Shown: positions 14,601 through 34,169, numbered from the stretch's first letter. The stretch: 64,000 nucleotides of DNA from Psammoneis japonica (GCA_008632985.1 QPGO01000038.1:87939-151938), one strand, 5' to 3'. The notes: generated by a model not told the origin, from the letters alone. Made by a program: numbers and translations.

Positions 14601-16493
14601 TCACCACTGTGAACAAAACGAATGTCCACCACCATGTTGTGCTCATTCATGACCATGTGGACGGAATCATGTGCTCTCACACTGCCTCCGGCAAAGGAGA
14701 CAATGAGTGCAAACTTTACGACCTTGTGCGATTTGTCACTGCAAAGAACCTTTCCCGATGCCATTTCAAGACATCTCTCACAGTGTGGCAACCTGGCAAT
14801 CACGTGATTCACGAAGATGCTTTGGAGATGCTGCCTGGATGGAGGATCACGCACTGTCGCATTTTCAAACTTTGTCATCATCCCTTCTTTGAACGCAGGC
14901 TTCTGCATGCTCTGAATTGTGCCTCGCAATTTTGGGTTCAAGTGCATGGCTTGAAACTGCTCCTTCATCTCAAAGGATTTGTTCTTCTGTTTTGCAGTGA
15001 GCTCGTTGTGAATTGCATTGAAGCTTCTCTTCGTAGACACTGACTCAACAATGTGGTTTGACAACTGCACGGTGACCGCCCATCGTTTTGTCACAACCAT
15101 GTTTGGAATTCCTCTCACATCGGCAATGAGATGAGCAAGCACCTCATCGCAATGCCCGGCAAAATGGCAAGGATGGTTGTCAATGTCATCCTCACAGTTG
15201 TCACCACCCACTTGGAATTCGTCTCCAGCCGCATCTTTTGCTTTCTTTGGCGATTTTATGCTGCAGCAGTGTCGACCAGAAAACAGGCTTCCAATGACCC
15301 ATCTTCATCAATGAGTGTACGAACAAAATTGTTGCAGAAAAGATTTCTACAAGTGCAGGGCTGCTTCGTCTCTGGGTTGTGTCTAAAGCCATGCCACTTG
15401 CATGGCATCTGCCCAGTCGGCAGCATGTGTGGGCCATTCTGTCAGGGGAAAAGAACATTGTGCGACAGAAGCATTTGAGCAGCAAGTCCGCAAAAGTTGG
15501 TGCTCTCTGAAGCCTGAAAGGTGCCACCCATTCATGTTCCTCTGATTTCCAAGGGAAATCCTTTGCCCCCATTGAATGTCAAACGTGTTGGTTGGATTGT
15601 TTGCATCTGCTCTTCACATCTGATCTGAGCTTGTGCATTGCATCTCCAACAATTGTCCGGAACATGTGGGGCATCTGCTCCATGTCAACACCTGGGAGGG
15701 GTTCTTCATCAGTTGGCTCTTGTCGCTGCTGCAGGACTGCAGGTTCTTCTGCCGGAACGACTTCCTCGGAGCTGTTGTCATTGTCGCTGATGGTTTCTGG
15801 CTGAGCAGCTGCAGCTTCCGCAGTGCTGTCCACAACTGCAGCCAAATCCTGATTGTTGGGAGCATCTGTCAATGTCTGACGTCTCCATGGCTCAAAGAAA
15901 TTTTGTGGGGCCCTTGCTTCTGCTCTGCTGGCTGCCAGTTGCCCACTTGGCTCTTGCTCATGAGCATCTTGCTGCTCCCGGTCCTGCCATTCTTTTTCCT
16001 CTTTTTGTTTGTCCCTGTCAATCTGAGCCATCGTCCTTCTCTTGTGGGTGCTTCCACGTGCTCGTCCACGCCCTTTCTTCTTTGGCAATTCTGGTCTTGA
16101 GTGTGGATTTGCCACCGTCCCTCATTGTGGTGCCGGTGCTTGTGTGGTCGTCGGCTGTGGCGCAGGGTTGTTTTCTCCGCCTGCACTCCCTTGCTGCAGC
16201 TCCCTTCTTGTGCATGGATTTGCCACCGTCCCTCGTTGTGGTGCCGGCACTTGTGTGGTTGTTGGCTGCAGCACAGGGTTGTTTTCTTTGCCTGCACTTC
16301 CTTGTGGCAGCTCCCTTCTTGCGCATGGATTTGCGAAGGGATTTGGCACCGGTGCTCGTTGTGGTGCAGGCACGTGCATGGTTGTCTTGTCTGTCACATC
16401 TGATTGCAACACAACTTCTTGGGTGACTTGCTGCAGCATTGGAGGCTGTGGCACAGAAGGATTGGCATCTTCTTCTGACCACCTCATCATCAA
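11685..16493 (-). pseudogene. Large DDE-type transposase with an inserted DnaQ/WRN-like 3'-5' exonuclease domain, frameshifted
   Basis: Ordered motifs: LCSDKSHKVVK, VMNEHNMVV, FYADNCCHE, then exonuclease VGFDVEW / GVNVKGDITRL / IYAALDAW, then VKGDPFCF (DxxH-like position) and HGTLQLEGFHKHL. Confidence 0.7.
16103..16334 (-). repeat. 111-bp tandem repeat (~2 copies) in the transposase N-terminal region
   Basis: GGATTTGC at 16105, 16216 and 16327. Encodes ANPC/ANPH...RRELxQGSAGxENNP repeats. Confidence 0.85.
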
Positions 16494-18624
16494 AAGTCAC
16501 ACCGGTGTGCTTCACATGAATCCTCAGGCGTCTTTGTCAAATTTGCACCAAAATGGACCGCGCACTTCTGCTTGTCCTTGTCAAAATGGAGCTGTGTCCT
16601 CATCAAATTCTGCACAAGTTCCAGCACAAATCCCACAGGTTTTGTGAAGAGCCACCTGCGCAGCTGGACGATTGCATTTTTGCTTGTGTGCAAATGTCTT
16701 GCGACACAATCCTGCAAAATGATTTCCATTGTGACGCGACTGTGACGTTGCATTTTCTCCCTCCGCCCAGCCATTTTTCTGAAGCCAAAAATCACCATGC
16801 CCCCCTCATCATCTGAGCAAAATGCCATCGGCAGTGGATGAGTTGTCAGTGCCTGCTTGCCCCCTTCCAGAGAATGGCCCCACTCCCTTGAGGGTCTTCT
16901 GACAAAAGGGGGCAAGCAGGTGCAAGTGGAGCTTGAGGACATTGAGAGGAAATGTGGCTCAGAAGTGTGCTCTCGTCTTGCCGAATTCTTTCGTGGCATG
17001 TCGAGCAACAAGCCTTGGTTCTTTGCCATCAAAGAGCCTCTTGTTCAGATGGTTAGGACCAGTGTTGGCATTTCATCAAAAAAGAGGTTGTGAAGCCATT
17101 GTGGAAGACCCCAACAATTCCACCGGTGGCAGCAAGGCCCTCCGCCAGCTGCCAGCTGCTCCACTCCAGCCACTGCTCTCCAGCTGGCGCTCTCTGGCTG
17201 GCGCTCTCCAGCTGGATTGTAAAAAGAGCCCAACTGCACTCAATGCACAACCTGTGGCACTCTGCCAGCAGCAACAAGGCCCTCCACAAGCTGCTCTGTT
17301 CTGGAGCAGATGCTGCACAGAGGGCAGAGCTCACTGCGGCTGTCCATTGATGTGCATGTCATGTTCATCATGTCAACCAGGCAACAATGGTCTGCTTGCC
17401 ACCCTGTTGCACCTCCGTTGTTGGGCTGCATTCACAGACTCTAGAGTTGGACATGCCAGCAACTGCACTTGGATGTTCTGGCCAGCAGAGGGCCCTCTGT
17501 CACTGGAGATGCTTTCTCTAAAGAGAGCAGAGCCCTTTCTGTCATGGCCAGCTAGACTCTGAGCACAAGCAGCTTTGAAACAGACAGAGGTTGAACGTCT
17601 GCATCTGGACAGAATTGCAGGACTGGGGGTGATCTGCTGGAGCCACAACAAACAGCAACTCATTGCTCATTTTCTCCACCATCAATGCAGCAGACACCCA
17701 AATTCCAAAATGCTGAGAACCACTGGAGCGCCAATCTCATCTCGACACCATGCACGACAGAGGTGGAGGAGCCTTTGCCAGATGTGCAAATCCTGCACAG
17801 AGAAATCTTGTGGACAAGGCCAAGCAACTGCGTCCTGGAGGTTCCAATGTCATGACAGAGAAACGTGTCAATGTCACCACGCTTGTCTGGAGCGCCATGT
17901 TGATCTTGGTTTCATCTTCTAGTTCATCATTGCTGCTGTCACTGACTTGACCTTGGCTCCACTCTGCATGTGTGTGGTTGCCACCAAAGAGCATGCAAAG
18001 AACATCATGCTTGACATCATCCATTTCCCAAATGCTGGGATTGAGAGATTTGGTCAAGAGGTTGTAAATGCCCGGCCCTTGCGCAACAATTTCATGAGCT
18101 CTTCAACATGTTCTGGAATGAAGCAAGTCGCTAGAGAGTCCACCACTGTGTGTCTTGTTGTTGGCATGAACAGGCCTGAAATCAATCACCTTGACCCATG
18201 TCTTGCACACAGAATTGAGACCCAGCTGATCTTGGGGATTGCCTGTTGAGGCTGGGCTCGCAGCACCCCAATGATTTCAATGCAGTCTCCCGGCTGAGCC
18301 TGAAAGAAAGGCAAGAATCGAAGCCAGTGTTTGTCCAGCTGGCACTTGATCATGTGTCTCTTGAATGCGAAGAGCTTGCTCATCAGAAAAATGCACCGCA
18401 GCAAAGGAGTTGTGGCAGTTGCAGACACGGCAAAGCACTCCACGTTGCCACAAATGCGGCATTCAAAGTGCACCACCTTGAAATCAGGGATGACAGGTGA
18501 GCTTTTTTACCAAGAAACCTTGAATGCCTCCAGTTGATGGGGTGGGTCCAGTTGCCACAGATGCAACAACTCCGTGAGACGAAACGGACTGACTTGAATG
18601 TTAAAAAAAAGCACAATCTTGCTG

Positions 18625-18853
18625 CAGACAACGAGAAGGACCAATCCTTGAATGCATCATTGATGGCTGTTGTTTTCGTGTGTTGTTGTTGCAATTTTAA
18701 CATGGCACTTGCCATGGTAAATTTGATGACTTCTTCCACGAGCGTGACATTTGATTTGTCAATTTTGGGATGCAAACACTTTTTAGAAATGCGTGGTTGA
18801 ATGCTGCATTGCAGTGCAAGCAGCAACATGCACACAACCGCCATGGGTGTCAT
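18625..18853 (-). pseudogene. Fragment of an SLC35A-type nucleotide-sugar transporter (N-terminal TMs)
   Basis: MAVVCMLLLALQCSIQPRISKKCLHPKIDKSNVTLVEEVIKF fits the LLAxQxxxQP...ExxK pattern of UDP-Gal/CMP-Sia transporters, with Cys at probable Tyr positions. Truncated. Confidence 0.6.
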
Positions 18854-19904
18854 GGTGGCTGATTTGAGAGTGGAAGAACAAAAGATGGCTGCACCTGCAC
18901 CGACAAGAGCCGTGGGTGTAAAAGCAGATGAAGTGGTGCTTGTTGGAAAAAACAACAAGGAGCCTTGCAGTGGTGTTCTCGGTTGTTGTTGTTGCTGTTT
19001 GTGTTGTGAAAGATCTTTTTCATCCTCGTCGTTGTTGAAATCATCCATGGTTTGTTGAAAGAGCACATGATTCTTTTCTGACAAGCACGCCAAAGCCAAA
19101 ATGGCTCTTGTGTGTGGAGCCATGGTTTGTCGGTGTCACGGCACTCCAGCAGCAGCAGCAGTTTGTTGAAAGGATGATGATGCATGCACGCAAGGCACAA
19201 CAAGACAATGGCGGTTGTTTCGGCATGCATCAGAAGCTCGTGTGTGTCATCGGTCATCGGTCGTTGTCCAAAAGATCTTGCACCACAAAAACTGTGTAGA
19301 ATTCTACGCAGCATCTTTTGAGTGCACCACAATTTGCTCCCAAAACAGCCAGATTTTTTGCACCTTCGTCCAAATCTTTCTGCAGAGGAACTGGTGGCAT
19401 CTTGTGCAGGCAAATGACAGCCATCAATCATTGGAAGATGAAAGGCATCAGGCATCAGCACCTCATCCAACACATCATCGCTCAAAACTGCACACATCAA
19501 ACATCATTGCACCATGTTGTTGTTGTGTGTCGTTCATTGGCAGTCGCCTTGTTGATTGCTGTGCTGCTGCTTTGCAGTCACGCCTTTGTGGTTCCATCCA
19601 CAAAATGCATCAGCAGCATTGCCACAACTGCTGCTGCGTCTCTCAAGGTTGCCGCTGAACCGGACAAGCTCAATCTTGCAACTGCTGAAGCCAACGTGAA
19701 GCCTGCACATCATGCAAAACCCACCAAGGATCCCCATTGAATCCCAACTTTGTTGACGTCATTCAGGGCATCCCATGCAACAATGCCTTTCCCAAGTCCA
19801 CCAAGGAGCATTGTGCAAAATTGTGCACAATGAAACAGGACATGTGTTGAAAGTTCCATTTTGCCATGTGCATCTCAAAGATCCTGACGAGCCGTGCATC
19901 AACT

Positions 19905-20839
19905 TGTGTGACACGTTGGGGCCGACACATTCCAGCTCTGGGTGGGACCTTGCACTGCTGCACTGTGACATCAACAGTTTTTTGGATTGCATCGCATGTC
20001 ACGCATGCACATTTCTGCGTGTCACATTCTTCGAAATTGTTTCATGCTCCCTGTTTTGCGAAGCCAAAGGCTTTCCATTTTCAACATTTGTGAGAATGAA
20101 AGTGCATGCACTGGGTGCATTCTTTAATGTCTGCAGAATGTGCTTGGGCAAACTGCCAATGATGCACTCCAAGTGTGAAGGAGGAGATGCATTTTTAAAA
20201 TTGCCTCTGTTTCTGTTCGCACGCAGAATTCTGCGGGCCCAAGGTCACACGGAGTCCCACCCAGGACTGGAACCCGTCAACCACAAGACATTGACCTCAA
20301 AGAGGGAGCGACCAAGATTTGGTCCAAGTGGGTCCAAAAGCGTGAAGGCAACTGTGAGCATTGGACACAAGTGCACTTTGCCAAGCAGGGCATTGTCACG
20401 GAAGAAATGCAATTTGTTGCCAAGTGAGAGGGCGTCAAACCGGAATTTGTGTGTTGTGTTGGCATCAGTGCTGTGCTCATCCAAAGAATTGTGACATCGT
20501 TGATGACGCATTCCAGCTCTGGGCAGGACCTCGCACTGCTGCACTGTGACATCAACAGTTTTTTGGATCACGTCGCATGTTGCGCACATGCATTTCTGCA
20601 AGTGACATTCTACAAAATTGTTTCATGCTCCCTGTCAATGTCTGCAGAATGCACCCGGGCAAACTGCCAATGATTTGCTCCAAGTGTGAAGAAGGAGATG
20701 TGTTCTCAAAATTGCCTCTTTTTTTGTTGGCGATGATTTGCATTTTCATTGCTTGATGAATTCACTGTGGAGCTCCTCGCACGCAGAATTTCATGGGCAA
20801 CAAAATGTCACACTGAGTCCCACCTGGGACTGGAACCCG
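19905..20839 (+). repeat. Pair of ~350-370-bp diverged direct repeats (~19905-20276 and ~20490-20839)
   Basis: Shared blocks CATTCCAGCTCTGGG, GCACTGCTGCACTGTGACATCAACAGTTTTTTGGAT, GGGCAAACTGCCAATGAT and terminal GAGTCCCACCxxGGACTGGAACCCG. Confidence 0.85.
20281..20454 (+). pseudogene. THIC: Captured fragment of phosphomethylpyrimidine synthase (thiamine biosynthesis)
   Basis: Translates as PQDIDLKEGATKIWSKWVQKREGNCEHWTQVHFAKQGIVTEEMQFVAK*EGVKPEFVC, matching the ThiC segment GPQ...TQMxYAKQGIITEEM..A.RE...PEFVR. TGA stands where Arg is expected. Not present in the ORF track. Confidence 0.85.
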
Positions 20840-20974
20840 AATGATTGAGAACTTGCTCTTGGACTCAATTTTTTGTTAGAATGAATGTCCAAACACGCCA
20901 ACATTCTGAGTGTTGCAAGATGGGAAGTGGTCCAGAACATCATTCAAAAACAACAACATTGCAGCCACACGCTT

Positions 20975-21295
20975 TCCAGAAAAACGGAAACCCAAAAATC
21001 CGGAAATGCGGAAACCCAGAAATCCGGAAAAACCGAAACCCAGAAAACTGAAAAATTGGAAATCCAGAAAAACAAAAACCCAGAAATCCAGAAACCCGAA
21101 AACCCAGAAACCCGGAAATCCGGAAAAACAGAAATCCAGAAAAACAGAAACCCAAAAACGGAAACCCTGAAATCTGAAAAAATGGAAAACAGAAATCTGG
21201 AAAAACAGAAACCCAGAAATCCATGAAAACGGAAACCCAGACATCCGGAAATGTGGAAACCTGGAAATCTGGAAATCTGGAAAAACAGAAACCCT
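20975..21295. repeat. Degenerate 8-9-bp short-unit array (CCAGAAAAA/CGGAAACC/CCGGAAAT)
   Basis: Dozens of imperfect C(A/G)GAAA(A/C/T) units, resembling DNA-transposon subterminal repeats. Confidence 0.75.
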
Positions 21296-21543
21296 GTTTT
21301 AAAGACAAAAACCTCTGTGTGGAATTTTTTTCTGTTGAGATGCCTTGTGACAAGGTCAGAAAAGTTGCAAAAGTCACCCTGGAGAAACAGAGCTGTGCAA
21401 GAAAGCACACATCACAGATGATGTCTCCTTTGGTGGCAGTGCGAAACAGAGCTGTGCAAGAAAGCACACATCACAGATGACATCTCTCCTTTGGTGGTTG
21501 CACAATGATTTTCAACACTGTCCATTTCATCATCATCATTGAG

Positions 21544-22130
21544 TCATGCCGCACTCCACATTGTGACTTCTTGTCTCAAAAAGATGGCATTGAGTCCTTG
21601 CCAATCGGCATTTCCACAGTTGCCGCTGCAAACCTTGAGCCGCTTCATTTCCGGTTGACAACCCGGGTTGTGTGTCCAATGAATCAGCGTCAATTGGAGG
21701 GATGGACTCATGCTCCAATCACCAACAGATGCATCAAAGAGAGCCATCCATTCTCCATCATTCATTGCTGCAGGCATTGGTGACAGTCAAACGCAACCCC
21801 GGCGTGGCACCCCAACAACTGGCTTCTTCCTCCTTGCTGGGTGGATCAACGAGAAAACAAAGAGTGCCTTGGGATTGGCATTGCCCACCACAATGACAGA
21901 AACTCCGATCACAATCGCAGCAACTGCAGTGAGCATGATGGCAACAATGCCAAACGTGCGACGTCTCCAAAAGGGTGTTTTGTTGTTTTCATCAGATGCC
22001 GACACTGCAGCAGACTTGTTTGCAAAAACATCTTTGTCGAAAGTTCCTGACTCCAGCGTTGTTTCATTGCTGATTTCCACCTCGTCAAAGGGACCACTCT
22101 CATGTTTGTTGCAAGGACTTGCGGTGCCAT
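21544..22130 (-). pseudogene. Decayed fragment of a host-type single-pass membrane/secreted protein gene
   Basis: Contains KTPFWRRRTFGIVAIMLTAVAAIVIGVSVIVVG (type II TM). A downstream segment, NDGEWMALFDASVGDW...LKVCSGNCGNADWQGLNAI, resembles (from memory) a diatom protein family with a KVCNGNYG.T.W.G.N motif. Confidence 0.45.
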
Positions 22131-22219
22131 GATTCAATTGGCAGAGTGCGCATGTCTTTTTTGAGTGTTTGCGGTGCGTTGAATTTTGTGAGAGGGATTG
22201 GAGATTTTCAGATGTCGTT

Positions 22220-22712
22220 CCCGTCTCGTTTGTTCTCCTGCAGCTCTCTAGCCAACTGGTGAGGTGCAGTTGCAGTTCTAAGTTGATGGACTGGAATGGC
22301 TTTGCTGGCGGATGCACAAGCCTCATTCCCAAAACCCAAGCTGGAACGGCAGGGCCAGAGGGCGGGAGAGGTGGGAGCATTGAGAAAACTGTCTTGCGGC
22401 TGTTGCTCTTGGCTGCTCTTCGGAAGAATGAGAGGAGTGAGTGGAAGAGCAAATGGCCGTTGCTCTGGTCTTGCGAAAGCGCGCTCAAATTGTTGAATGG
22501 CTAGAAACGACCCACAACGGCCAGGCGTGGGTCATTTCGCTTCGTCGAACATCGCAAGGTTGGCGGCTAGCGCCGCCCGTCTCGTTTGTTCTCCTGCAGC
22601 TCTCTGGTTAACTGGTGAGGTGCAGTTGCAGTTCTAAGTTGATGGACTGGAATGGCTTTGCTGGCGGATGCGCAAGCCTCATTCCCAAAACCCAAGCTGG
22701 AGCAGCAGGGCC
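22220..22712 (-). repeat. 3' split repeats B2 (22220-22356), A2 (22377-22563) and B1 (22576-22712)
   Basis: The 137-bp B copies are offset by 356 bp. A2 matches 28441-28657. Confidence 0.92.
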
Positions 22713-22740
22713 TTCCAGCGCCACCCACAGTGCCATGCAC

Positions 22741-23982
22741 TTAAGGGCATGCACCATTGGGAGGGTGGGTGGGTGAGGCTGGAGGGCTGTGGGAGATCCA
22801 GCCCTGGGGATCTTGAGGATTCACAGGGACGTCGGCATTTGGATGGAGGACGAAGTCACCACCAGCAAGCATGTCACGAGCAAAGTTGCGCATGACGGGC
22901 TTGGCTTGCAAGTGAAGGCAGCACAACATTTCATCAGATCGCCAACGGCCCAAGAGCCGGACAAGGTCGGTGTCAACATTGGCGCGGAGAAGCGCCATGG
23001 CGCCAGTGGCGCGAAGACAGCGAGCAGTGACATCTCGGGTGTTGAATCCGAGATTCGCCGGACCACAAGCAATTGCAGCAGTGTGCAGTGCACCAGTGAT
23101 GTCGGCAGGTGACACACGTTGCCAGGCGCCATTTTGAAAATGGACGCCCAGAGGGGTGTCGGGGAGTGCACCATGCATCCGAAGATGCTGGGCGCCACGG
23201 ACGAGTGCCTTGGTTGGGCACAGGTTGGGGTGCCCCGAAAGGCCGAGTCCCAAAACTTCTCTGTGGATGCCATTCTTTTGTGTTGTGAAGGCAAGAGTGG
23301 CGAATGTGGCAGCATCAAGCTGAGCATCGGGGGCTTGGAAGGTGTTGAGGTGGACGTTTCCAGATGCCAGGCAGACATCGGCGAGACGGAACGGCGTGGT
23401 GTCGGATGGGGTGGCGGTGCATTTGCCAGGGCGCAGCAAACAAAAGAAGGCAATGGCAATCATGTCGGCAATGGCATTGGTGCCAGGATCGTTGCTGTTG
23501 GCTGCAGCATGCATGATCCAGGTGAGGACGACGACGGGGACCGGTTTGATGCGGTCGGGCGGTGGATCCTCTTTCTTGTAGAAACGGACTTGGCGGGTGA
23601 GGCGGAAATCCATGCCGCCTTGGGGTGTGCAGCGCAGGTCCGAGGACCCCACGGCAGCGAACGTTTGGCCAACTGACCGCACGGCATCCTCAGCGGTTTG
23701 TCCACGGACGGGATTGCCGCGTGGGGCAATGGCTCCTGTTTGGCATCGGTGGAGGAAGACTTGCAAGAAGACAATGGGGTCATCAACGTCTTGGAGCAGA
23801 GGGTCGAGGGCCACAGTGGTGCAGAGCTTGCGCCATTCATCCCAACGGGTGTTGGCGGTGGCGGCGCACGAATTGGTGACACCGTGGGCAACGGCATGCT
23901 GAGCAGCGTTGAGGTCACGAAGGAATTCAGCTCGGGTGGTGGCGTCCAAAGGCGCCAGGAGAGTTGCTGTGGATGACAACAA
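22741..23982 (-). pseudogene. Tyrosine recombinase of the DIRS-order element (catalytic Tyr mutated)
   Basis: AFFCLLRPGKC (expected FFxLLRPGEY), TTQKNG, ARCLRATGAMAL and LLGRWRSDEMLCCLHLQ (expected GRWxSD.MLRYL). Confidence 0.9.
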
Positions 23983-26050
23983 TTGAAATGGGTCAAAAAT
24001 TGTTTGTCAGTGAGAGACTGGAGGCGGGGTGCGTCATCAGCGGCAGAGTTGAGGCATCCGGGCCTGCAATCATGGAGTCCAAGGCAGCGGTGACAGCTTT
24101 GATGGAAGGCTTGGTGCCGGAGAAGCTTGGAGGCGGGTTTGATCGTTGTGGCCGATCCTTTGCGTTGCCAATGCATTGTGCCGGAATTGTCGGTGCGGGA
24201 CAGGACAGTGCGCTCGCGCATGTCGAAACACTCGGCGGCGGCATGGGATTGCATGATGCTGCCTGCGAGTTCGAGGTCGGTGTCAGTGATGGGACCTCCA
24301 GGGTTGGCGCACGTGGCTGGGCGGGATGAGACGCACTTTGGAAAGGGAAGTCGCCACACCACGGGGCCTGCATCACGTTGAGTGCAGTGGCGGCCGTTGC
24401 TGAAGCGGAGGGTGGCGGCGCGCAGGACAGCAGTGTCGGTGGGCAGGAGCATGCCGCCGGCACCGTGGCCGGCTGCATCATGGCAGCCTGCAAGAGTTGG
24501 TTGTGATGGAACCAGTTCATGAATGTGAACGGGTCGCGAGTCGAGGGTGGCTTCAAGCTCGCGAAAATCGTCCAGTGCTGAATGGGCATTTTGAGCAAGG
24601 CAGACTCGGGAGTCTGGAGCAGTGTGTTGGAGGTTCTCCTGAAGTTCTGAGTGCAAACTGCGCAAGCCTGGGATGGCAATGCCAAGGGAGCGCAGTTTGC
24701 CTAGAAGCTTCTGGTGTTCGGCAGTGGTGGCATGCTTTCTGGTGCGAGGAAAATCCTTGTAAAGCGTGTTGTGAAGTCGTGCACGCCTGCGTGGCGTGAG
24801 ACGGATGGTCATTGATTGTGTGTCAATTAGCCACCCTGGCACTTCTTTCTGTGTGGACCAGGTGGCGTCACCCTTGCGGAGCTTCTTGACAGAGGCTGGC
24901 TCCTTGCTGGTGGCTGGATCCTGGGAATCAAGGGGACAGAAGATGTCGTCTAAAGCACACAGAGAATGACTCGATGTGCATTTCGGCGGGACCGTCGCGA
25001 GCCTTGCGAGGCTCCAATGAAGTCGTCCACATAGATTTCGACGCATTGCAGACGACGACGGCAGTGTCGCCTGAGATGTGGGTCGTGCGCCTGTGGCACT
25101 GGCACAGTTTGCGTGGTGCCATCGTCTGGTGGTGGTTGGTGTGGCGGCAGCCTGCTGTTGAGCAATCATTCCAACGGGTGTGCTGGAGCTTTTACGTTGC
25201 GCATGAGGTCCAGGTTGGCCATGTCCGCCACAGTTTTGGCAGCAGTGCAAAACACAGGTGGCGAGTTGGCCCATCCCACAGGCAGACGTGTGGGGAAGGC
25301 AACAAGTGGTGGTTCGCCTGGCAAGCTTGGGAAAACCACTCCCAAGGTGGGTGCTTGGTCCGGGGCAAGTTGCATGCGACAGCAGCCATCTGCAAGATTG
25401 ATCTTCATGAGGTGGACCTTGCCTTTTTGCGGGTTGGCCAACAGGATGCGACGCAACAATCTGTCCAGGGCTCGACCAAATTGCATGGCTTCCACTGCGG
25501 CGTTCGGTTGTGTCAAAGGGTTGACGCCATAGAATGTGCAGTCTGCGATGGGGCGTGGGTGCCTGCCACATTGTGGCACCACACCAATGGGGCCAAGTCG
25601 AAGCCCCAGCGCATTGCGGACTTTGTGGTGCGGAACCACAGTCCAAAAACCTTTTTCCACCACATCGGCCACATCTTCGCGCAAGAACTTGATGTGTTCG
25701 TGTGCGGACTTGTGTGGTCCTCTTTCAACACTGGTGTCTAGCTCAGCGTGCGTCCAGGGTGCGTCGGTGACGGTGATCAGTGCTCCATGGTGCTTGCACT
25801 GTTTCAGCAGTCGATGTGCTGGATGTCGTTGGCTTCTGGCCAGGGGGCCCCAATCGCCTCTGCCGCTGCGGCGACACAACAGGTGGCTGAGTCCTTTGCG
25901 ACGCAACAAACCAGTGTCATTTGAAATGTGCTCACCCAATTTGTCATTGTAAATGGCAGCAGCCACATCCTGTCCACGTGCAGTGGGGCGGGTGTGCTGC
26001 CGCTTCAAACTCTCCACAGTCGGGGGTTGTGGATGCGCTGGCCGCTTGGC
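23900..26050 (-). pseudogene. Reverse transcriptase / RNase H of the DIRS-order element, frameshifted
   Basis: GVVPQCGRHPRPIADCTF, KINLADGCCR, RLPVGWANSPPVFC and EIYVDDFIG (~25020-25040). RNase H motifs HDAAGHGAGG, DLELAG, TDNS and NSAADDAPRL. Confidence 0.88.
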
Positions 26051-26107
26051 CGACGTGAGAATGGGCTCTTGGCACCAAGTCCCCGAACTTGGGCCATTGC
26101 CGAAGAC

Positions 26108-28363
26108 CCATTTGGTCTTCCAATGTTCCTCGCCCCAAGCGAGGAAGCGCTGCTGCTCATCCTCTGTGTGGTCATTGCGATGGTCGTAGCTTGAGCCGCA
26201 GTTGGAGTTGCACTGTCCCTTGATGTGGTGGGGGTTGCAACGGACGCACCCTTGATCGTCCTTTGGGAGCTCGACATTGTCTTGGGCGCATCGGTTTTTG
26301 ACGTCCCGTGACCGCACGTTGGGACAATCACGCAACCTCGCGAAGCGCGAGTCGCAGGCGGGGTTGCAAACGATGCTGTTGGTGCCCACTCTCACATCGT
26401 CGCCCGACCCTGTAACAGGAGCAGGGGGTGCTCCGGACCCAGTGGCAGGCGTGACAGAGCCCGTGGCCTGCATCAAAGGTGGGAGGCTGAGACGCCAAAA
26501 CATGGTGCCCTTTGCCGCTTCATGCACAACATTGTGTGCCGTGAAGGGCACTTCCTGGTGCGTGGTGGCTTGAGACAGGAACCAATGGCACACTTCCACC
26601 TGGGCATGGCATTGTAGATCCACGGGGAGCGTCGGGTGCAAGGTGTGCTGGTGCATGAGCTTGTTGGCACACCGATCCATGTTGGTGCACTGAAGGGTGA
26701 GCCACTGCACGACGGGGTGCTGATCTCCGAGGGTGGCCGAGAGGATGAGACGGCAACCGTCGTGGGATTGCTGTGCTGCTTGCACAGTGGTCGCGACGAG
26801 TGCCTTGTCGGGCGCTTCCAGGAGCTGTGTGTCTTGGAGGGACGGAACACCGGCACCTCCGTGCATCTGTGCATACATTGCATTGTGACACACGATCTGT
26901 TCGGCTGCTTGTGGAGCAGTGAGCCTGAACAAAAATGGGTTGATGCCTTGTGTCGGCTCCTCCTGATCATGGCCGGCGAAATCGAGTTGCACCAACTTTG
27001 CAACAAGGCTGACAGTCACTGGGAGGTCGAAATGCACTTGCAAGGCTTGACACTGCTCCTCAATGGAATTTTGAACGACAGCGAGGCGTCCCGTCTTTGG
27101 TGCTGTGGCAAGTGCTTGCCAGAAAGGTGGGAGTGCAGCCTCGTTGTAGACCTGGCACCAGTGCAACAACTTGGTGACGCCAAATGCGCCCCAAAACTCC
27201 ATGGGCGTCTTCCCCCGGCTAGCAGCATTGTGCCTTGCCTCTTCGTCCAACCGCTGTTGCCGCTGCTTGGTGGTGAGACCTTCAACGGCGGCAACAACGG
27301 GTTGAAAGTGCTGCGCCGGCACTTGAGTGCCGGCGTTGCGACCCAGCAGGTCTCGCTCAACCTTGTGGTCAAAAAAGTGCATCAAAGCATCATTGGGCGG
27401 CCGTGTCATGGTGGGCCAAGGCTGAGCCACAGCGGGTTGGAGCTGTGCATTTGCTGTGGCACAGCATGCGACTCTTAGAAAGTCCAGAAGCGGTGCCAAG
27501 GCCATGACTTTGTTTGCTGCTGTGGCTGCCCCGTGGAGCCTCGTGCAAGCGGCTTTTGGGCCAAGCGGTGTGGGCAAGAACAGGCGGACGAACTCGAAGG
27601 GGACGCACATGGCATTGCACGTCCTCACTTCTTCGGTGTCTTGTGCACTGGCTTGCACATGAGGATGCAAACCATTCGGAGCAGCCGTGATGTGCGCGCG
27701 CAAGGCGTCATGCATGGGCACCCACGTGCCTTGGTTGGCTAAAGCAAACGCGTTGTCTGCAAACTCGACGAGGGTGAACTGTCCACGTGTCAAGTCGCCA
27801 GTGACAACGAAGGTGGCATTGTCCCAAGGCTGCGCGGGACCCACCACAGCAGTGGGGCACGTAGAGACGCAGTGCAAAAGCTGCACTTGCCCCTCGTCCA
27901 CCATGCCTTGTGCCCGACAATGAATGACAATTGCCATTGGAAGGTCGTGGCTTGAAGCGGCTGCCACTCTGTCGCGCAATGCCCCGGGATTGCATCGTGA
28001 GGCACCCTGAACCGGCGCCACAAAGTCCAACACAGCTTCGGTGTGCTCCCCATGATGCAGATCCTTGGAATCCATCGCGCGGCAATCTTGGCAAGTGCAA
28101 AGCACGGGTGGAGCCGGAGGCATGACAGGTGCTCCGGCTGGTTGCGGCGGCTGTGGTTGACCCCCTCCGGCAAAATGAACACCTGGTCCGGCTGGTGGCA
28201 CCGGCACTTGCGGCGGCGCTGGTGCTTGAATTGGTTGCTGAGCTGCTGCGTTCGCTGCCGCCCCATTCTGAACTCCTTGCGCCATGGCTGCTCCTTGTGC
28301 TGCTGCAGCTCCTTGCGCCACCATGGCTCCTTGCACCGCTGCGGCTCCTGGTGGTTGATTCAT
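26108..28363 (-). pseudogene. gag-like ORF1 of the DIRS-order element
   Basis: Starts MNQPPG (ATG at 28363), with an A/Q/P-rich N-terminus and a C-terminal Zn-finger-like CNPHHIKGQCNSNCGSSYDH. The 3' end is inferred. Confidence 0.75.
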
Positions 28364-28440
28364 GACACATGAGAGGGGAGGCTCTTCCTGCGAACGATGA
28401 AAACAACAAATGGCGGATGGTGTCCTGCGCCAAATCGATG

Positions 28441-28657
28441 GCATTAAGAAAACCATCTTATGGCTGTTGCTCTTGGTTGCTCTTCGGAAGAATGAGAGGA
28501 GCGAGTGGAAGAGCAAATGGCCGTTGCTCTGGTCTTGCGAAAGCGCGTTCAAATTGTTGAACGGCTGAAAAAAAAAAACGACCCAACGGTCAAAAACGGG
28601 CCACAACGGCCAGGCGTGGGTCATTTCGCTTCGTATCGTCGAACGTCGCGAGGTTGG
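28441..28657 (-). repeat. 5' split repeat A1
   Basis: Near-identical to 22377-22563 apart from indels and TA/CG-site substitutions. Confidence 0.9.
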
Positions 28658-28932
28658 TCATGAACATATATTTTTTTATTCACATGTAGAATGCCAGCGC
28701 TTTTTGATCTTGCGGCGCGACGGTGATCATCGCAACACGACCGCTCATCAAAAGCATGTGCCGTTGTAGCTCGCAGTGAAGCTTAACTTTGAGAAAACGA
28801 GCCATGTTGAACAAGCGGCATTGTCATTCCATCAACAAGACTAGTGGAGCTATCTTAGCAGACGACTCGTATGCTCATGGGTAAGAGTTACAGTAAGAGT
28901 TAACGTCCATGTACAAGTAGATTCGGAACCAT

Positions 28933-30030
28933 CTATTCTTCGAGCGATGAAGCACTAGAGTCTTCCTCTTCTTGAGGGTCGTACTCTGCGAAATGTGAAA
29001 GCAGAACATCCCCATAAAGTTGTTCATTTTCAAGCAACCCGTAATGTGAACAACCCGCCAGTACCATTGTTTGGCAATCATCAAGAATGGCGTGCCATCC
29101 CTTGATGCATTTCTGAGATACAAAGTCGTGCTGACCTCGCAACAACAGCGCAGGCGGAAACGCACAATCATCGGAACACGTTGCAACGTAGTCCGGGATA
29201 GCCTTGGTTCCAAACCAAATATCTGATGTTTGAGAATACGCATCCAAGAGAGGTACGGGGATTGGTACCACTCGGCATTCATGAAGTTGTCTAAAGGTCT
29301 CCATTGTGCGACGGCTTTCGATCTCTTCTGTATCCTTGTCGTCTAATCTGTCCTCATAATCAATATCCTCCTCCTTTTCATTATCGTCTTGATTCTGAAT
29401 GATTGCTTCCAGAAGCTTTCTCGATTCCTCTTCCACCAAGGCGATGCTGGTAGGAGTACTTGACAAGATGAGGGAAAGACACTGGTGCTCGCGGCTAAAT
29501 TCGACATCGTTGTAGTTCTTCTTGAGATATTCAAAAGCCAAAATACCCCCAAAGGAATGCCCGTACAGATGAAATTCTGATAGATTCAATTCATCATGAA
29601 TCAGTGCCTCGAGATCTTGAACAAACAACTCGATTGAGTACGCGGATGCATCTTTTGTTCTGGAGGACCGCCCACATCCCAATTGATCATAAAATACCAA
29701 CGCTCGGTCAGTCACGAGGTGTACCAGCGGATGCAAGTAATTCGATGGGACACCTGGTCCGCCATGTATGACCACCAGAGGCGGTGGCGGTTGCTGCTTA
29801 ATGATCTTGTCGTATTTCAATAGTCGAGGTCGAAAGACTAGATACCGAATCGAGCAAGACATGTTTGTTCCATCCGCAAGCGTTCGATGCACCGTCAGGG
29901 TTGAATCTTCACATATAACTCCTGTAAGGCACAGTGGTGGCGTTGGTGCTAGTTGTGCAGCCTGTTGTCGCTGAATATCGTCGTCTCGGCGAAGCGAGCC
30001 ATACGGAGTGAAGGACGACAACAGGGGCAT
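28933..30030 (-). CDS. Proline iminopeptidase-like alpha/beta hydrolase (peptidase S33)
   Basis: Intact 365-aa ORF with IHGGPG, YDQLGCGRS, GHSFGG nucleophile elbow, RGQHDFV and CSHY. Confidence 0.9.
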   Translation of the reverse strand: MPLLSSFTPYGSLRRDDDIQRQQAAQLAPTPPLCLTGVICEDSTLTVHRTLADGTNMSCSIRYLVFRPRLLKYDKIIKQQPPPPLVVIHGGPGVPSNYLHPLVHLVTDRALVFYDQLGCGRSSRTKDASAYSIELFVQDLEALIHDELNLSEFHLYGHSFGGILAFEYLKKNYNDVEFSREHQCLSLILSSTPTSIALVEEESRKLLEAIIQNQDDNEKEEDIDYEDRLDDKDTEEIESRRTMETFRQLHECRVVPIPVPLLDAYSQTSDIWFGTKAIPDYVATCSDDCAFPPALLLRGQHDFVSQKCIKGWHAILDDCQTMVLAGCSHYGLLENEQLYGDVLLSHFAEYDPQEEEDSSASSLEE

Positions 30031-30265
30031 GTTACAAAGTGCTTTGTACTTGTAAACGACGAAGAGGAGAGCTCTTCAGGAATTTCTGTATTCTGTTTTC
30101 TGCAACGCGCAGTGCCTTCTAAGATGTACGGATGCTGCTTTTTGTTCTTTCTCATCACCGCACTCTCGCTCCCGTTTTGCGGCGGCGCAGCAACAAGTAC
30201 GGTATGCGGCCATGTCCATCACCATCGATGCACATGATGCGGCCGCCGGCCGCATGGATGTTGAG

Positions 30266-30448
30266 CGAGGTCTGAGGTCCACATAAAAACCGTTAGAGGT
30301 CTAACACTTCTTTTGAAAAAACCATTAGACCTCGAGGTCTGAGGTCTAGATAAAAACCATTAGAGGTCTAATGCTTTTTGCGAAAAAACCATTAGACCAC
30401 GAGGTCTGAGGTCCACATAAAAACGGTTATAGGCGGTCTAATGCTTTT
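30266..30448. repeat. 67-bp tandem repeat (~2.7 copies) with internal GGTCTAA/TTAGACC inverted motif
   Basis: CGAGGTCTGAGGTC at 30266, 30333 and 30400. Confidence 0.85.
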
Positions 30449-30720
30449 GACAGTTTCTCTACAGTATGGCGCATCGTACTATACAGTACAGTAGCTGGAA
30501 AACGAACAAAACAGGGGCTCAGAAATAATTATAAACCAAATCCCTATCTACCGGTAGAGAAGAGTAGGCCCTATAGTTCTAGAGACTAGAATACGTGTCA
30601 TCGCATGTCTCGTCTACAGTCTTGATTCCAATGGACCAGCGAAAGATGTACTATACCGGGTTGCGTGGACAGCAACAGACAAGCAGCAATAAGGAATGTT
30701 GACAACACCAGTTTCATGTC

Positions 30721-32229
30721 TCAATCAAGTCGTATTTTTGTTTTCCCCAATTTCCACGTGTTTACCGATGATCCTTGCCCTCCTGCAGAGGAAGAGGTGG
30801 CCAGTTGATCTGTCAAGTTTCCTTCTCGTTCCTGACCAAGTCGACTGAGTTTATGGTACGAGCTCGAGTTTGCATGCGCAGTAACCAACCACGCTAGAGC
30901 AACCAGCGACGAAGTTTGAAACAGGGCGGCACCCCACGCTACGGCTGGATGGCGCTGATAGTATGGAAGGGCCCATCCGCAGAACCAAGTAATCAGTGGC
31001 AAACTTTGAAACCAAAGCGTTCCGACTAGAGCAAGTTTCCCATAAAAGCGCTCCAGTCCAACGTTAGGGCATGATTTTGCTGTCTGGACGCAAGATACAA
31101 CAAGAAGAACTCCCAATAGTATACGGAAAATCATGAGAAGCCGTCCTGGCCGATGCTCCAACGCGTGATAGGAATCAAAGTCGTCATTGTATGATCGTCC
31201 CCATTGCGCGAGAGCCACATGAACAGTAATAATCGACAGTGCTAGCAGTCCTGCCGCATTGTGATTAACCAATGATCCCACTGGTGAACGCAAGCCTTGA
31301 AGCAATGATTGCAGTTTACCACCGGACGCTGTCGAGGATACGTGTACCGCATCCGAGGGCAAGGTCCACCCAGCCGCAATCGACAATAAGAGAAGCGCAA
31401 CGAGTGAATCGCACACGGCCTCAAAATGAGTCGACATGGCATCCAATGTGTAAGAGCCATATCCGTTGCTTTCGTAAATGTTCAAGTGAACCAATTCACA
31501 AAGGGACGCAACAGCGTCACACCCGGTCGCCGCCATTACAATCAACAAGGCCATGTGAACCGTCGAGCTTTCAGTCAGCAAAATACCAACACGCATTCCC
31601 AACAACCCTGTCAGTAGCAATGAAATCACAAGTGTAATCATATGAAGCGTCTTCATGCCTGTTTCGTCGGCTGATAGGTGGGTAAGCACAACTCCGTCAT
31701 TATCCCAATCCCCATTCGCATTCCTTTGTTTCCTGTTCCCACCAACATCATTGAATATCTCCACGTCATAATTCAACACCGGTATTGCATTGTCATGGTA
31801 CCGCCGCTCCAATGAACAGTCATCAATCACAACATACCAATAGTGCGCCCGTTCTTCCCGTTGTTGCCACATGGGTCCTTCGATACGGGCTTTCCATTTC
31901 TTGTCGTTTCCATAGTCAAACGATACGCCATGGGTGGAATGAAAAAGCCGAGTTCTTGCTGTACAAAGCGTCGCCTTTTGATATCGTTTCCAATTAGTGT
32001 CGAGAAACAAGTGTACTTTGAGCGAAGATTCATCCTCATACATATCTTTGGACCAAAGGTCCACTTTGAACTTGCCCCTCGCAAAAGGTCCTAATGCAAA
32101 CTTTGTCAGCACCACGTCCGAGTTTGCTCCCGTCAATCGAACTGTACCAGAGACTTTTTTCCCTCCAACAAGAGCGAGCAGAAAAGAAACGAAGCATATA
32201 AAGTACCCAAGAAGAAGACGACAATCCAT
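30721..32229 (-). CDS. GPR180/TMEM145-like (GOST family) seven-transmembrane protein
   Basis: Signal peptide after ATG 32229, lumenal domain with RAHYWYVVIDDC and HLSADE, then multiple TMs including HLNIYESNGYG and IAAGWTL. Confidence 0.85.
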   Translation of the reverse strand: MDCRLLLGYFICFVSFLLALVGGKKVSGTVRLTGANSDVVLTKFALGPFARGKFKVDLWSKDMYEDESSLKVHLFLDTNWKRYQKATLCTARTRLFHSTHGVSFDYGNDKKWKARIEGPMWQQREERAHYWYVVIDDCSLERRYHDNAIPVLNYDVEIFNDVGGNRKQRNANGDWDNDGVVLTHLSADETGMKTLHMITLVISLLLTGLLGMRVGILLTESSTVHMALLIVMAATGCDAVASLCELVHLNIYESNGYGSYTLDAMSTHFEAVCDSLVALLLLSIAAGWTLPSDAVHVSSTASGGKLQSLLQGLRSPVGSLVNHNAAGLLALSIITVHVALAQWGRSYNDDFDSYHALEHRPGRLLMIFRILLGVLLVVSCVQTAKSCPNVGLERFYGKLALVGTLWFQSLPLITWFCGWALPYYQRHPAVAWGAALFQTSSLVALAWLVTAHANSSSYHKLSRLGQEREGNLTDQLATSSSAGGQGSSVNTWKLGKTKIRLD

Positions 32230-32578
32230 GGTGACGATACAGTAGTTACTATCCGGGCGGTGCTGCAATTCATGTGATTTGCGATTTGCGAAGGATCGCG
32301 AGGCGAAATAATAAGAGGAAAAATCTTTTTACGTCACTTCCGGGTATCTCAGATCACTGCGTGTAACACAAGCTTCTTCCGTACCAACAGACCTCCCAGT
32401 TGGGAGTGACATAAGCTCGTTCTCGACAACATGATAACTACAGGTACATGATGACTAAAAAGGACTAATGCTTTTTTGAACTGCTAACGTAGAATCAATC
32501 CTCATTTTGTTTCGACATCGGCAATGCTAGAGTTTTACTTTTTGCGAACGCCGAACTCTTGCCAGGTGCCATGATCCT

Positions 32579-33370
32579 TCAAATCACACCATTTCCGACA
32601 AAACGGTTGCACTGCCAGAGCTTCACAGTCGAAGCTACCTTCAAACTAACAAAGGGCTTACCCTGCACCACCTTTCTCTCTTGCTCCTGGCGACAAAGTA
32701 GTTGGCGTCTCAACAACAGTTGTTGAGCAAGCAAGACCTCCATCGCAGATCGAGCTTGGAAGGGATGAAGCTTTCGCGCATACGCCTCGAGATAAGGTGT
32801 TGCTACCCTGGGAGACAATTGATAGCTTGACGTGGCATTGAACTCATTCGATAACGCAATGAGTTCCTTTTGGGGGTCATCCGGTTGCTTGGTTCCGGCA
32901 CGAAGTCTCCAGACAAAGCCAATGGATTCAAGACGCGCTCGACGGTGGGTAGAAAGATTCGATCTGTTCTTCCTTTGTTCTCTTACAAAAGAGCCGAGCT
33001 TTGGGTCTGCCTTGTGTCGTTGAGGCACAAGACAATCCCCGTGCATTTCCTTGTACGCGACAAGCCTGTCGAACATTGTGTCCCACGGTTCGCGTTTGAC
33101 AACAGTCCAGACGAAACCAATGGAATCAAGTTGCTTTCTCCTCTCGGGAGAAAGGCTGTCTTTGTTCTCTCGTTGTTTATTCACCCATCGACCCAAACGC
33201 GGGTCCAAACTGTACCTCTGTGGTACTAGACAGTTTCCGTGTTTCAACTTGTATTGGACCAATCGCTTCGTCATATCATCCCAAATCTTGTTCCATTTCT
33301 CAACGGATGGGCTGACTTTCCCTCCTATATTCTCATCGGTACAAATCCTTCTCTTCTTGAGAGGTGCCAT
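32579..33370 (-). CDS. Helicase-associated (HA) domain protein, two HA repeats
   Basis: WDDMTKRLVQYKLKHGNCLVPQRY..DPRLGRWVNKQR...LDSIGFVW, followed by a second copy. Confidence 0.9.
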   Translation of the reverse strand: MAPLKKRRICTDENIGGKVSPSVEKWNKIWDDMTKRLVQYKLKHGNCLVPQRYSLDPRLGRWVNKQRENKDSLSPERRKQLDSIGFVWTVVKREPWDTMFDRLVAYKEMHGDCLVPQRHKADPKLGSFVREQRKNRSNLSTHRRARLESIGFVWRLRAGTKQPDDPQKELIALSNEFNATSSYQLSPRVATPYLEAYARKLHPFQARSAMEVLLAQQLLLRRQLLCRQEQERKVVQGKPFVSLKVASTVKLWQCNRFVGNGVI

Positions 33371-34169
33371 CTTCTCTAGAGCTATGACAAGACACTGAAT
33401 CGCAGATTTGTAGTCTACGCGTGTGCTGTGCCGTTTTGCTTTGTTGATTGTGTGAGTGAAACGCTACCGAAAAATCAGCAATGACTCTCCGGTTCCGAGG
33501 TAGAAACACCGCCATAACAAAGATTCCCTCAAGGGTTACAAATTATTGGTCTTTGCTAGAATGGACACTCTTGCGAAACCACTGCGTTCGTGCTGCCCTC
33601 TATGTACTCTCCAGTAGAGCGAATGCTGCGTAGCTAGAATATCTCGCTCGTGATATTTTTGTGTGACCAGATCAAACCAGACATTCTTGCATCAATGACC
33701 TTGGACAAATCTAATGAAACGTTTATGTGCGTGAATAGCAAAGAAGAGATCGATTTAACCCCTAGAAACAATTATTATCAATGACAGTTACAAATGACCA
33801 GTTGTTCAAGATAAGCCCCTTTTCCTCGTCCAGCGCACCACTGTGGAAAACAAAAACTGCATGATCACCATACTTAGCACTACCGTACTATAGCTACTGG
33901 TAGCATTGGGACTACTCTAGAGAAATCATCATCTTTAATCTCTACCAGCTACGGCACACCTGACGGAAGAACGCATTATGTAAGATAAGCATCTCGTGGA
34001 GATAGATCCTGTTTTTGTGCACTCGCAGTGTTGTGCCGGCAGAGAATGGCGCACAAAAACTAGATGCAGTAGTAGAAGTGTAGTACAATCGCACAAGGTG
34101 TCTGAAGTCAGAAGTAGGCTACTGTAGTCTAGTTTCAAAGTATCTTTACTTCCTTAGGTAACTCATGCT

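Follow-up and report, generated by a model that had tools for sequence, protein, structure and literature searches.

The stretch of DNA analysed here, referred to below as the window, comprises 64,000 nucleotides of the Psammoneis japonica assembly GCA_008632985.1 (QPGO01000038.1:87939-151938) and carries, at 22217-28656 on the minus strand, a retrotransposon of ~6.44 kb which is a dead copy of a DIRS-order (Ngaro/PAT-like) tyrosine-recombinase element, placed within that order by repeat layout and domains. Almost all of its conserved tyrosine codons have become cysteine or histidine codons, and we consider it highly likely that this pattern is the coding footprint of a hypermutation that acts on DNA: in repeats or foreign sequence it converts TpA into TpG or CpA, and host genes are spared. 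The specificity for a single dinucleotide, the restriction to repeat blocks with sharp borders, the independent action on copies after their duplication and the preference for certain flanking bases are supported directly.

In elements of the DIRS order (DIRS1, Ngaro and PAT; Goodwin and Poulter), the reverse transcriptase (RT) and RNase H are encoded ahead of a tyrosine recombinase (YR), which takes the place of an integrase, and in Ngaro and PAT elements the open reading frames (ORFs) are enclosed by split direct repeats in the layout A1-ORFs-B1-A2-B2. The element shares with them the order of RT and YR, probably with an RNase H in between, and the split repeats (Table 1): A1, the ORFs, B1, A2 and B2 follow one another along it, all repeats being direct, and no inverted repeats of at least 40 nt were found in the search of its terminal architecture. 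A1 and A2 are 92% and 88% identical in two ungapped repeat families and 81% identical over a gapped match of 217 columns. The bounds of the element follow from these split direct repeats, from the switch in TA density at its right end and from the length of its relatives, metagenome contigs of relatives with a YR match being commonly 6.0-6.5 kb long. Unlike the family, this copy is broken and has no catalytic tyrosine.

The last ORF has, according to its predicted structure, the fold of a tyrosine recombinase in place of a DDE integrase. It has 689 homologues of ~380 residues each, and its AlphaFold model, with a pLDDT of 88.7, finds as best Foldseek matches Cre recombinase (E 4e-6, target TM 0.66-0.72), followed by Xer, phage and Tn1549 integrases. 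Sequence evidence for this assignment is weak, as Pfam Phage_integrase is found in 4 of 95 alignment members, and a profile search of the PDB with the YR alignment returned 0 matches. The most common known phylum in the Atlas cluster of the YR is Bacillariophyta, which is a lead only. The closest intact YR homologues, P0002 and P0003, share 66-68% identity with this copy; they were rejected as its progenitor, the differences being mostly transversions and multi-step changes.

For the pol region, 151 homologous proteins of ~800 residues were obtained, the 120 listed ones aligning at 40-65% identity and one of them being named from the diatom Cyclostephanos tholiformis. All seven pol homologues scanned match RVT_1 at E<=0.01, which is a weak match, one of them lying above the curated cut-off; neither the window's own RT nor any other ORF of the element gave a Pfam match, even at E<=1. 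Agreement of the RNase H with the homologue consensus is at the level of motifs only (HDASGxGxGG, TDN, ADDASR). The middle stop-to-stop frame of the element (23463-25724, minus strand, 754 codons) is coding in part only. The first ~800 codons of the 1163-codon frame upstream contain no recognisable domain and are followed by the RT, and the homologous pol proteins begin only ~100 residues ahead of the RT; the gag and pol frames may have been fused through the loss of a TAA or TAG stop to the same TpA process. To the left the element is adjoined by an A-rich array with a period of 8 nt (20917-21316), in which a 131-nt unit recurs 22 times in overlapping copies set 8 nt apart, and which translates to FRISGFP-like repeats in two frames.

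Table 1. Features of the element, listed from its 5' end, and blocks of the window (positions counted from the first nucleotide of the window)
Feature	Position	Strand	Remarks
Terminal repeat A1 (5' end of element)	28441-28656	-	aligns with A2
1163-codon open frame, gag-like N-terminal part and RT fingers/palm	25169-28657	-	5 Tyr; contains LADGCCR
In-frame TGA stop inside RT	25166-25168	-	three-frame translation; alignment to pol homologues
RT palm continued, same frame	24958-25165	-	Tyr of YVDDF kept, codon 25031-25033, context CTAT
Frameshift	near 24950-24965	-	three-frame translation
RT thumb and RNase H-like part, next frame	23463-24962	-	HRY...HDY now HRC...HDC
Cys codons of RNase H-like part	24084-24086 and 24066-24068	-	
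Tyrosine recombinase ORF, 421 codons	22744-24006	-	1 Tyr
'KC' codons where homologues have 'EY' (PGEY box)	23419-23424	-	E to K CpG-type; Y to C TpA-type
'CC' codons where homologues have 'RY'	22918-22923	-	R362C by CpG to TpG; nucleophile Y363C by TpA to TpG
Repeat B1	22576-22712	-	96% identity with B2
Repeat A2	22377-22563	-	aligns with A1
Repeat B2 (3' end of element)	22220-22356	-	aligns with B1
TpA-poor block containing the element	11171-28656		~4 TA per kb
Other TpA-poor blocks	1-410, 1162-9612, 10234-10671, 37301-41894, 43568-47224, 55587-57364, 57878-64000		
Host-gene block with normal TpA (internal control)	28667-37200		~45 TA per kb; begins ~11-30 bp past the end of the element

A systematic replacement of tyrosine by cysteine or histidine, with TAY codons becoming TGY or CAY, had been proposed in a first-pass annotation of this DNA, and the motifs which it quoted are all present, namely GRWRSDEMLCCL and LLRPGKC in the YR ORF (22744-24006, minus strand), LADGCCR in the RT (25376-25396, minus strand) and HRC...HDC in the RNase H, where it reads CHRCLGLHDC (~24066-24090, minus strand). 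For the long ORF the count of about five tyrosines was right, while the length of 1152 residues has to be replaced by 1163 codons from stop to stop. Conserved tyrosine columns were tabulated against YR, RT and RNase H homologues, as had been suggested there, a tyrosine column being an alignment column with tyrosine in at least 50% of the homologues (n = 94 for the YR, n = 120 for RT/RNase H). In these columns the YR of the present copy reads C, Y, C, H, C, its RT reads C, H, H, C, H, C, C, and its RT thumb and RNase H part reads K, C, C, H, C: 15 of the 17 are now cysteine or histidine, the catalytic one among them, one has kept its tyrosine and one is lysine. Every cysteine at a lost tyrosine column is encoded by TGY and every histidine by CAY (10 against 5), which speaks against random substitution, and cysteine or histidine is not the rule in intact homologues either, since 57 of the 94 YR homologues read YYYYY at the five columns.

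The homologue consensus is FFLLRPGEY and GRWRSDEMLRYL in the YR and KxDISDGFYR and HRYxPxHDY in pol (DLADGYYR in the closest intact pol homologue), so that this copy shows PGKC for PGEY, LCCL for LRYL, DGCCR for DGFYR and HRC..HDC for HRY..HDY. The column which we take to be the nucleophile, lying 8 residues past an invariant tryptophan and near the C-terminus of the Cre-like fold, is tyrosine in 93 of 94 YR homologues and cysteine (TGC) here; the family has the catalytic tyrosine, and this copy is a dead member that has lost it. Among columns conserved to at least 80%, tyrosine was changed in 7 of 8 and other residues in 64 of 394 (Fisher p = 2.9e-5). The three frames of the element together contain 7 tyrosines in 2338 codons (1 in 421, 1 in 754 and 5 in 1163), the neighbouring host hydrolase ORF contains 17 in 380 codons, and the homologue proteins have a median of ~2%.

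That the damage consists of missense rather than nonsense changes also holds, as both strands of the element contain 17 TAA and 25 TAG against 181 TGA (143, 184 and 313 in the genic block). With the loss of TAA and TAG, two of the three stop codons, long open frames of 200-1163 codons become abundant in the repeat blocks without being genes. The same annotation pointed to similar changes elsewhere in the window, and at the strings KCGCGIP (59280-59300, plus strand), GMCHPH (6124-6141, minus strand) and NPC/NPH (16107-16329, minus strand) the loss of TpA was verified, the ORFs containing them having no Pfam matches. Its interpretation is therefore essentially right but describes one face of a broader process: tyrosine is only the most visible target, and what is acted upon are dinucleotides, in coding and non-coding repeat DNA alike.

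Tyrosine codons are not the only ones affected. The 402 conserved columns contain 71 differences from the consensus, made up of 15 TpA-type changes (7 of them at tyrosine), 23 CpG-type changes (R to C, H or Q, E to K, V to I and others), 17 transversions, 11 multi-step changes and 5 other transitions. Those TpA-type changes which do not concern tyrosine likewise correspond to TpA becoming TpG or CpA (I to V, M to V, T to A, N to D, S to G, V to A and L to P). CpG decay acts alongside and has caused more changes at conserved columns than the TpA process has (23 against 15), including the arginine next to the catalytic tyrosine, which became cysteine through CGY to TGY.

Across the window, the repeat blocks taken together (42,937 bp) have odds ratios of 0.06 for TA, 1.65 for CA/TG and 0.55 for CG, compared with 0.61, 1.18 and 1.01 in the pooled genic blocks (18,450 bp), while AA, AT, AC and AG barely differ between the two. 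GC is raised in the TpA-poor repeat blocks and, as a matter of arithmetic, the gain in CA and TG (~5.9% of dinucleotides) balances the losses of TA (3.3%) and CG (3.0%). At 1-28 kb, 37-42 kb, 44-47 kb and 55-64 kb the odds ratio of TpA lies between 0.03 and 0.12, compared with 0.55-0.70 at the host genes, which corresponds to 2-7 TA per kb in repeat blocks against 39-46 per kb in genic ones. At the right border of the element the final internal TA lies at 28634 and the following ones at 28667, 28669, 28677 and 28687, the switch thus taking place within ~30 bp of the element's end. In a scan of 43 ORFs, all six with a Pfam match above the cut-off were located in TA-normal blocks, and none of the ORFs of at least 200 codons in TA-poor blocks reached the cut-off. 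Low TpA is not a trait of the family, as 80 of 80 related metagenome elements have TA odds ratios of 0.38-0.87 (median 0.63; median GC 53%), with the qualification that one of the two search patterns by which they were found held an intact PGEY box and so disfavoured mutated relatives.

Some of the TpA-poor blocks (37301-41894, 43568-47224 and 59768-64000) are nearly free of CpG as well, with odds ratios of 0.08-0.3, and the DIRS element and the first 14 kb (1-14 kb) have kept it at 0.7-0.8. The loss of TpA therefore saturates well before CpG decay does, and the level of CpG may serve as a relative age marker for hypermutated repeats. In the public sequencing run X1 the region 37.3-42 kb has near single-copy depth at a likeness of at least 80%, which marks old relics. 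Two islands of near-normal TA, 411-984 (30 per kb) and 9613-10233 (24 per kb), lie amid TA-free repeats; they may be slivers of unique DNA left between insertions, in which case they would underline how tightly the depletion follows borders. The host genes of the window are long and intron-poor. A contig of another run, X2, skips 89 bases (35950-36038) between a GT2-like ORF and the next ORF upstream, which is probably a spliced intron, in which case X2 would consist of RNA in spite of its label 'DNA?'; X2 has no contigs on most of the repeat blocks, which is not evidence of their silence.

When and where TpA was lost can be judged from 11 repeat pairs within the window, with 3117 aligned columns. 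These contain 61 adjacent double differences in which CA stands opposite TG, of which ~6.9 would be expected from CpG decay (derived from 113 shared CG and 79 CG-versus-TG/CA sites), and the remaining types of adjacent double difference amount to 35 combined. The simplest reading of a CA/TG double is an ancestral TA turned into CA in one copy and into TG in the other. If both outcomes have equal odds, the ancestral TA would have numbered ~130, or 42 per kb, which is a normal density; TA is kept in both copies at 11 sites and in one copy at 13. With a background divergence of 109 in 3117 columns (3.5%, other transitions and transversions), the loss is estimated at ~87% of TA per copy, roughly 100 times the background and ~7 times the CpG rate (p = 0.26). 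Each copy thus had its TA converted to TG or CA independently of the other, at the level of DNA and after duplication.

One source of such pairs is a second element at 55703-59794, where a repeat of ~0.3-0.6 kb is present in three copies (55703-56333, 56508-57091 and 59517-59794) flanking an ORF of 627 codons (57567-59447, plus strand), called Copia by the first-pass annotation and without a Pfam match; its repeat pairs hold 5-18 CA/TG doubles each. A tandem duplication of 525 bp at 2102-3149, 98% identical, lacks both TA and CA/TG doubles, with CpG-type changes making up 8 of the 10 differences between its copies; it was therefore duplicated after the erasure of TpA, when no fresh targets were left.

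The loss also depends on the neighbouring bases. Survival, expressed as the frequency of each NTAN tetranucleotide in poor blocks divided by its frequency in genic blocks, is 0.00 for ATAT, 0.01 for ATAC/GTAT, 0.03 for both GTAC and ATAA/TTAT, 0.04 for ATAG/CTAT, 0.09 for CTAC/GTAG, 0.12 for GTAA/TTAC, 0.19 for CTAG, 0.27 for CTAA/TTAG and 0.40 for TTAA. RTAY is erased and YTAR is spared, a purine 5' of the T (equivalent to a pyrimidine 3' of the A) favouring loss, and the bases on the 3' side rank T>C>G>A. The same preference is visible in the survivors: 9 of the 11 TA kept in both members of a pair stand in TTAG, CTAA or TTAA, and 7 of the 8 surviving in-frame tyrosine codons are preceded by a pyrimidine. 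No signal was found for a dependence of the cysteine or histidine outcome on the 5' base (R-Cys 5, Y-Cys 5, Y-His 3, R-His 2).

A mechanism consistent with these observations would begin with the conversion of TpA to TpG or CpA in repeat or foreign DNA, both strands being open to change. Tyrosine is the sole amino acid with TpA in all of its codons, and would therefore be erased regardless of codon choice or neighbouring bases, TAY giving TGY (cysteine) or CAY (histidine), while TAA and TAG would be lost in the same way and frames would be kept open. The nucleophile of the recombinase and the conserved tyrosines of the RT and RNase H would be removed by this route, and CpG decay, the TGA stop and the frameshift would complete the inactivation. 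The process may serve to defend the genome, with homology, small RNA or chromatin marks guiding it to its targets. Its chemistry would probably be a deamination of adenine on one or the other strand of TpA, which is palindromic, giving inosine that is read as G; the enzyme is perhaps of the TadA/ADAT2-like type. Enzymes of that type naturally act on tRNA A34, which is always preceded by U33.

A process of this kind has been described once, in the chlorarachniophyte Bigelowiella natans, where according to a 2026 preprint two integrated viral regions of mutation-accumulation lines had acquired 231 mutations, of which 230 were A-to-G or T-to-C, all of these changes lying on TpA and arising at ~6e-7 per site per generation (bioRxiv 10.64898/2026.01.13.699255). 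In it Mettrop et al. propose an ADAT2-like adenine deaminase, and report that low-TpA coding sequences are enriched in RT and DDE domains and mostly missed by annotation (bioRxiv 10.64898/2026.01.13.699255).

Several points weigh against interpreting the window in this way. Among the 11 repeat pairs, three set the same three copies of a single repeat against one another, so that the pairs are not independent, and ancestral states were taken from protein homologues and from repeat pairs in the window instead of a family consensus. Because TpA is palindromic, T-to-C chemistry is indistinguishable from A-to-G, and a role in defence, a targeting signal and a responsible enzyme are inferred only. 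The platform of run X1 is off record, and the run may be the assembly's own data. Finally, the element's own terminal repeats have 1 CA/TG double in 354 columns where ~5-7 would be expected, along with 4 TA-versus-TG/CA singles and 1 shared TA. This copy may therefore already have been TA-poor when its repeats were last identical, a situation that fits editing before integration or the copying of a mutated master better than purely in-place decay; a copy could have been TA-poor on integration because an intermediate had been edited or because a mutated master had been mobilised in trans. Another possibility is that replication of the DIRS type does not homogenise its repeats as that of long terminal repeat elements does.

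Among other explanations, the loss of TpA might be a by-product of base modification in silenced repeats, for instance N6-methyladenine or 5-hydroxymethyluracil at TpA, which would miscode or deaminate with no dedicated mutator being involved. The repeats do seem to be targets of modification, given that CpG decay is found in the same blocks (CG 0.55, falling to ~0.1 at 38-41 kb), sharp borders would suit marks placed on defined elements, and so would the ambiguity between T-to-C and A-to-G suit this reading. We nevertheless think it unlikely, since a loss at ~100 times the background and ~7 times the CpG rate is very high for the spontaneous decay of a stable mark, and the process in B. natans, as described in the preprint, is on in some lines and off in others, which is more like an induced activity.

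The terminal repeats of the element bear on the possibility that an ADAR-like or other deaminase edits RNA, cDNA or an extrachromosomal circle and that the edited copies then integrate, as with APOBEC3 on retroviral cDNA. Their deficit of CA/TG doubles, the repeats having most of their edits in common, is what such editing would predict, and X1 hints that an already TA-free copy was inserted recently without becoming fixed: one contig matches 28668-29466 with 3 differences, after which come 16 letters of other sequence and then 30 letters that match up to 22216, one letter short of the bridging threshold, while an exact-match X1 contig within the element has a word depth of 27 against ~60 for single-copy contigs, which together would indicate a haplotype without the element and a hemizygous recent insertion. 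Other copies in X1 differ at 1219 places, and the 40 of these that were considered include CpG-type and TpA-type changes and two CA/TG doubles, too few to polarise. For the window as a whole, editing before integration is nonetheless quite improbable. TpA has also been lost from non-coding repeats, from the block called MULE by the first-pass annotation and from old relics that are single-copy at a likeness of at least 80%, and the direct repeats flanking the ORF at 57.6-59.4 kb, like other pairs, differ by so many doubles that both copies must have begun with TA at its normal density and then lost it separately, as parts of the chromosome. The order of 3' neighbours found here is unlike that of ADAR, which prefers a 3' G. 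In B. natans, moreover, the preprint describes mutations arising de novo in DNA that is already integrated.

An artefact of base calling or assembly, in which modified TA would be misread by long-read callers as TG or CA depending on the strand, is very unlikely, even though a random TG or CA outcome per site and a restriction to silenced repeats are just what strand-dependent miscalls at a symmetric site would produce. Logan contigs of run X1, with a word depth of ~60 on single-copy parts, show 0-1 differences to the window over several kb of TA-free DNA (27873-28365 and 37131-42000) and also over 31817-36936; such a depth of exact 31-mers points to accurate reads, noisy long reads would not give it, and the TA-free sequence is therefore not an assembly artefact. 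The B. natans result was obtained from Illumina data. Public data from elsewhere also contain similar proteins: the closest YR homologue, P0001, is tyrosine-poor (0.51%) and has H, C, H, Y, C at the five columns where this copy has C, Y, C, H, C, so it was hypermutated separately, and 9 of 147 representatives of the RT-RNase H region have under 0.8% tyrosine with raised cysteine plus histidine. The same hypermutation seems to be recorded in other public samples. The individual YR and RT-RNase H relatives P0001, P0493, P0445, P0447, P0432, P0362, P0398, P0462 and P0475 have 0-0.7% tyrosine and 5-12.6% cysteine plus histidine.

A native property of the family or the effect of selection (GC-rich codon usage, avoidance of TA nucleases or of TA/TTAA-targeting transposons, GC-biased gene conversion) can be set aside as having next to no likelihood since, for all that the family is GC-rich (median 53% in 80 relatives) and mild under-representation of TpA is universal (0.61 in the host genes), its relatives have normal TA and tyrosine at the columns, the loss spans non-coding DNA and all frames, AT and AA are undepleted, leaving no general AT-to-GC drive, and dead copies took differing outcomes at shared sites. 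Three specific candidates were dropped, GC-biased gene conversion because AT and AA are undepleted, a WA mutator of the Pol-eta type because AA is undepleted, and UV photoproducts at TA because they are not repeat-specific.

DNA-level hypermutation of TpA in repeats, which we continue to prefer, can be set beside known systems. Methylation-driven CpG decay of transposons likewise yields TpG and CpA and operates in the same blocks here, where it accounts for 23 of the 71 changes at conserved columns, but it is estimated to be ~7 times slower per site and cannot account for the loss of TpA or the tyrosine pattern. In animals, retroelements are edited by APOBEC3, which changes C to U on cDNA, and by ADAR, which changes A to I on double-stranded RNA. 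Both share with the present case a deaminase-type transition hypermutation of selfish elements, and ADAR also favours a 5' U; they act before integration and with a strand bias, whereas here chromosomal copies diverged after duplication and non-coding repeats were hit too.

The closest parallel is B. natans, in whose integrated nucleocytoplasmic large DNA virus (NCLDV) and virophage DNA, according to the preprint, only TpA is hit, giving TpG and CpA, and host genes are spared. Both properties are found in the window, where this hypermutation is confined to TpA and only foreign or selfish DNA is affected, and the low-TpA coding sequences of B. natans mostly escape annotation just as the repeat ORFs here have no Pfam match. 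The differences concern host, extent and evidence. B. natans is a rhizarian whose genome is given as 6.0% TpA (~4-4.6% of dinucleotides in the genic part of the window), and its depletion is described as partial (NCLDV odds ratio 0.45; 124 clusters in ~95 Mb), while the window is saturated, with 0.06 over about two thirds of its length; B. natans offers direct evidence from mutation accumulation, and the evidence from repeat pairs here is indirect. A word search of the preprint's main text found no use of 'context', 'trinucleotide', 'tetranucleotide', 'diatom', 'stramenopile' or 'other species', and full-text literature searches returned no report of TpA-targeted hypermutation besides this preprint. 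The window is unlikely to derive from B. natans itself, given its long genes with few introns, its lower genic TpA and the diatom relatives of the element family. A diatom host is suggested by the pol homologue named from Cyclostephanos, the Atlas cluster of the YR, an HA-domain gene and the long, intron-poor ORFs; a search for homologues of the FMO reached 36% identity at best, with no close relative that bore a name, and the S1-NKAP protein matched only weak animal NKAP clusters (0.75) in the Atlas. The process, known once from an unrelated alga, is seen here at saturation in a probable diatom. We regard the chances as evenly balanced that the window reveals a second eukaryotic supergroup with a TpA-erasing defence, that is, a stramenopile, probably a diatom, in which every repeat family is saturated, chromosomal copies are changed one by one at ~100 times the background and faster than by CpG decay, borders are kept to ~30 bp and RTAY is preferred over YTAR.

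Should this be confirmed genome-wide, the mutator would extend from one chlorarachniophyte to a second and ecologically dominant algal lineage in which its end state is visible, and the RTAY over YTAR preference, together with the rates relative to CpG decay, would constrain the identification of the enzyme. It would also explain the abundance in such genomes of repeat 'dark matter', whose frames are long and open but in which no domain is recognised. For annotation this means that dead transposons pose as long ORFs that match no profile; screening for low TpA combined with high CpA/TpG picks them out immediately. Tyrosine recombinases and the tyrosine-rich motifs of RT and RNase H are hit at catalytic residues without any nonsense changes from the TpA process, and tyrosine-less, catalytically dead DIRS copies may still be mobilised in trans.

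Finally, the phenomenon resembles fungal repeat-induced point mutation (RIP; Neurospora and others), which is likewise confined to repeats, saturating and dinucleotide-specific, consists of transitions introduced into the chromosome copy by copy with sharp borders, and kills transposons. RIP, which is premeiotic and triggered by homology, runs in the opposite direction: by changing C to T it makes TpA out of CpA, so that AT and TpA rise and stops are created, whereas in the window TpA is destroyed and depleted 10-fold, CpA and TpG are enriched, GC is raised and stops are removed. If the reading given here is true, the process would be RIP in mirror image, whether of ancient origin or evolved by convergence, and its four-base preference a possible fingerprint of the enzyme.

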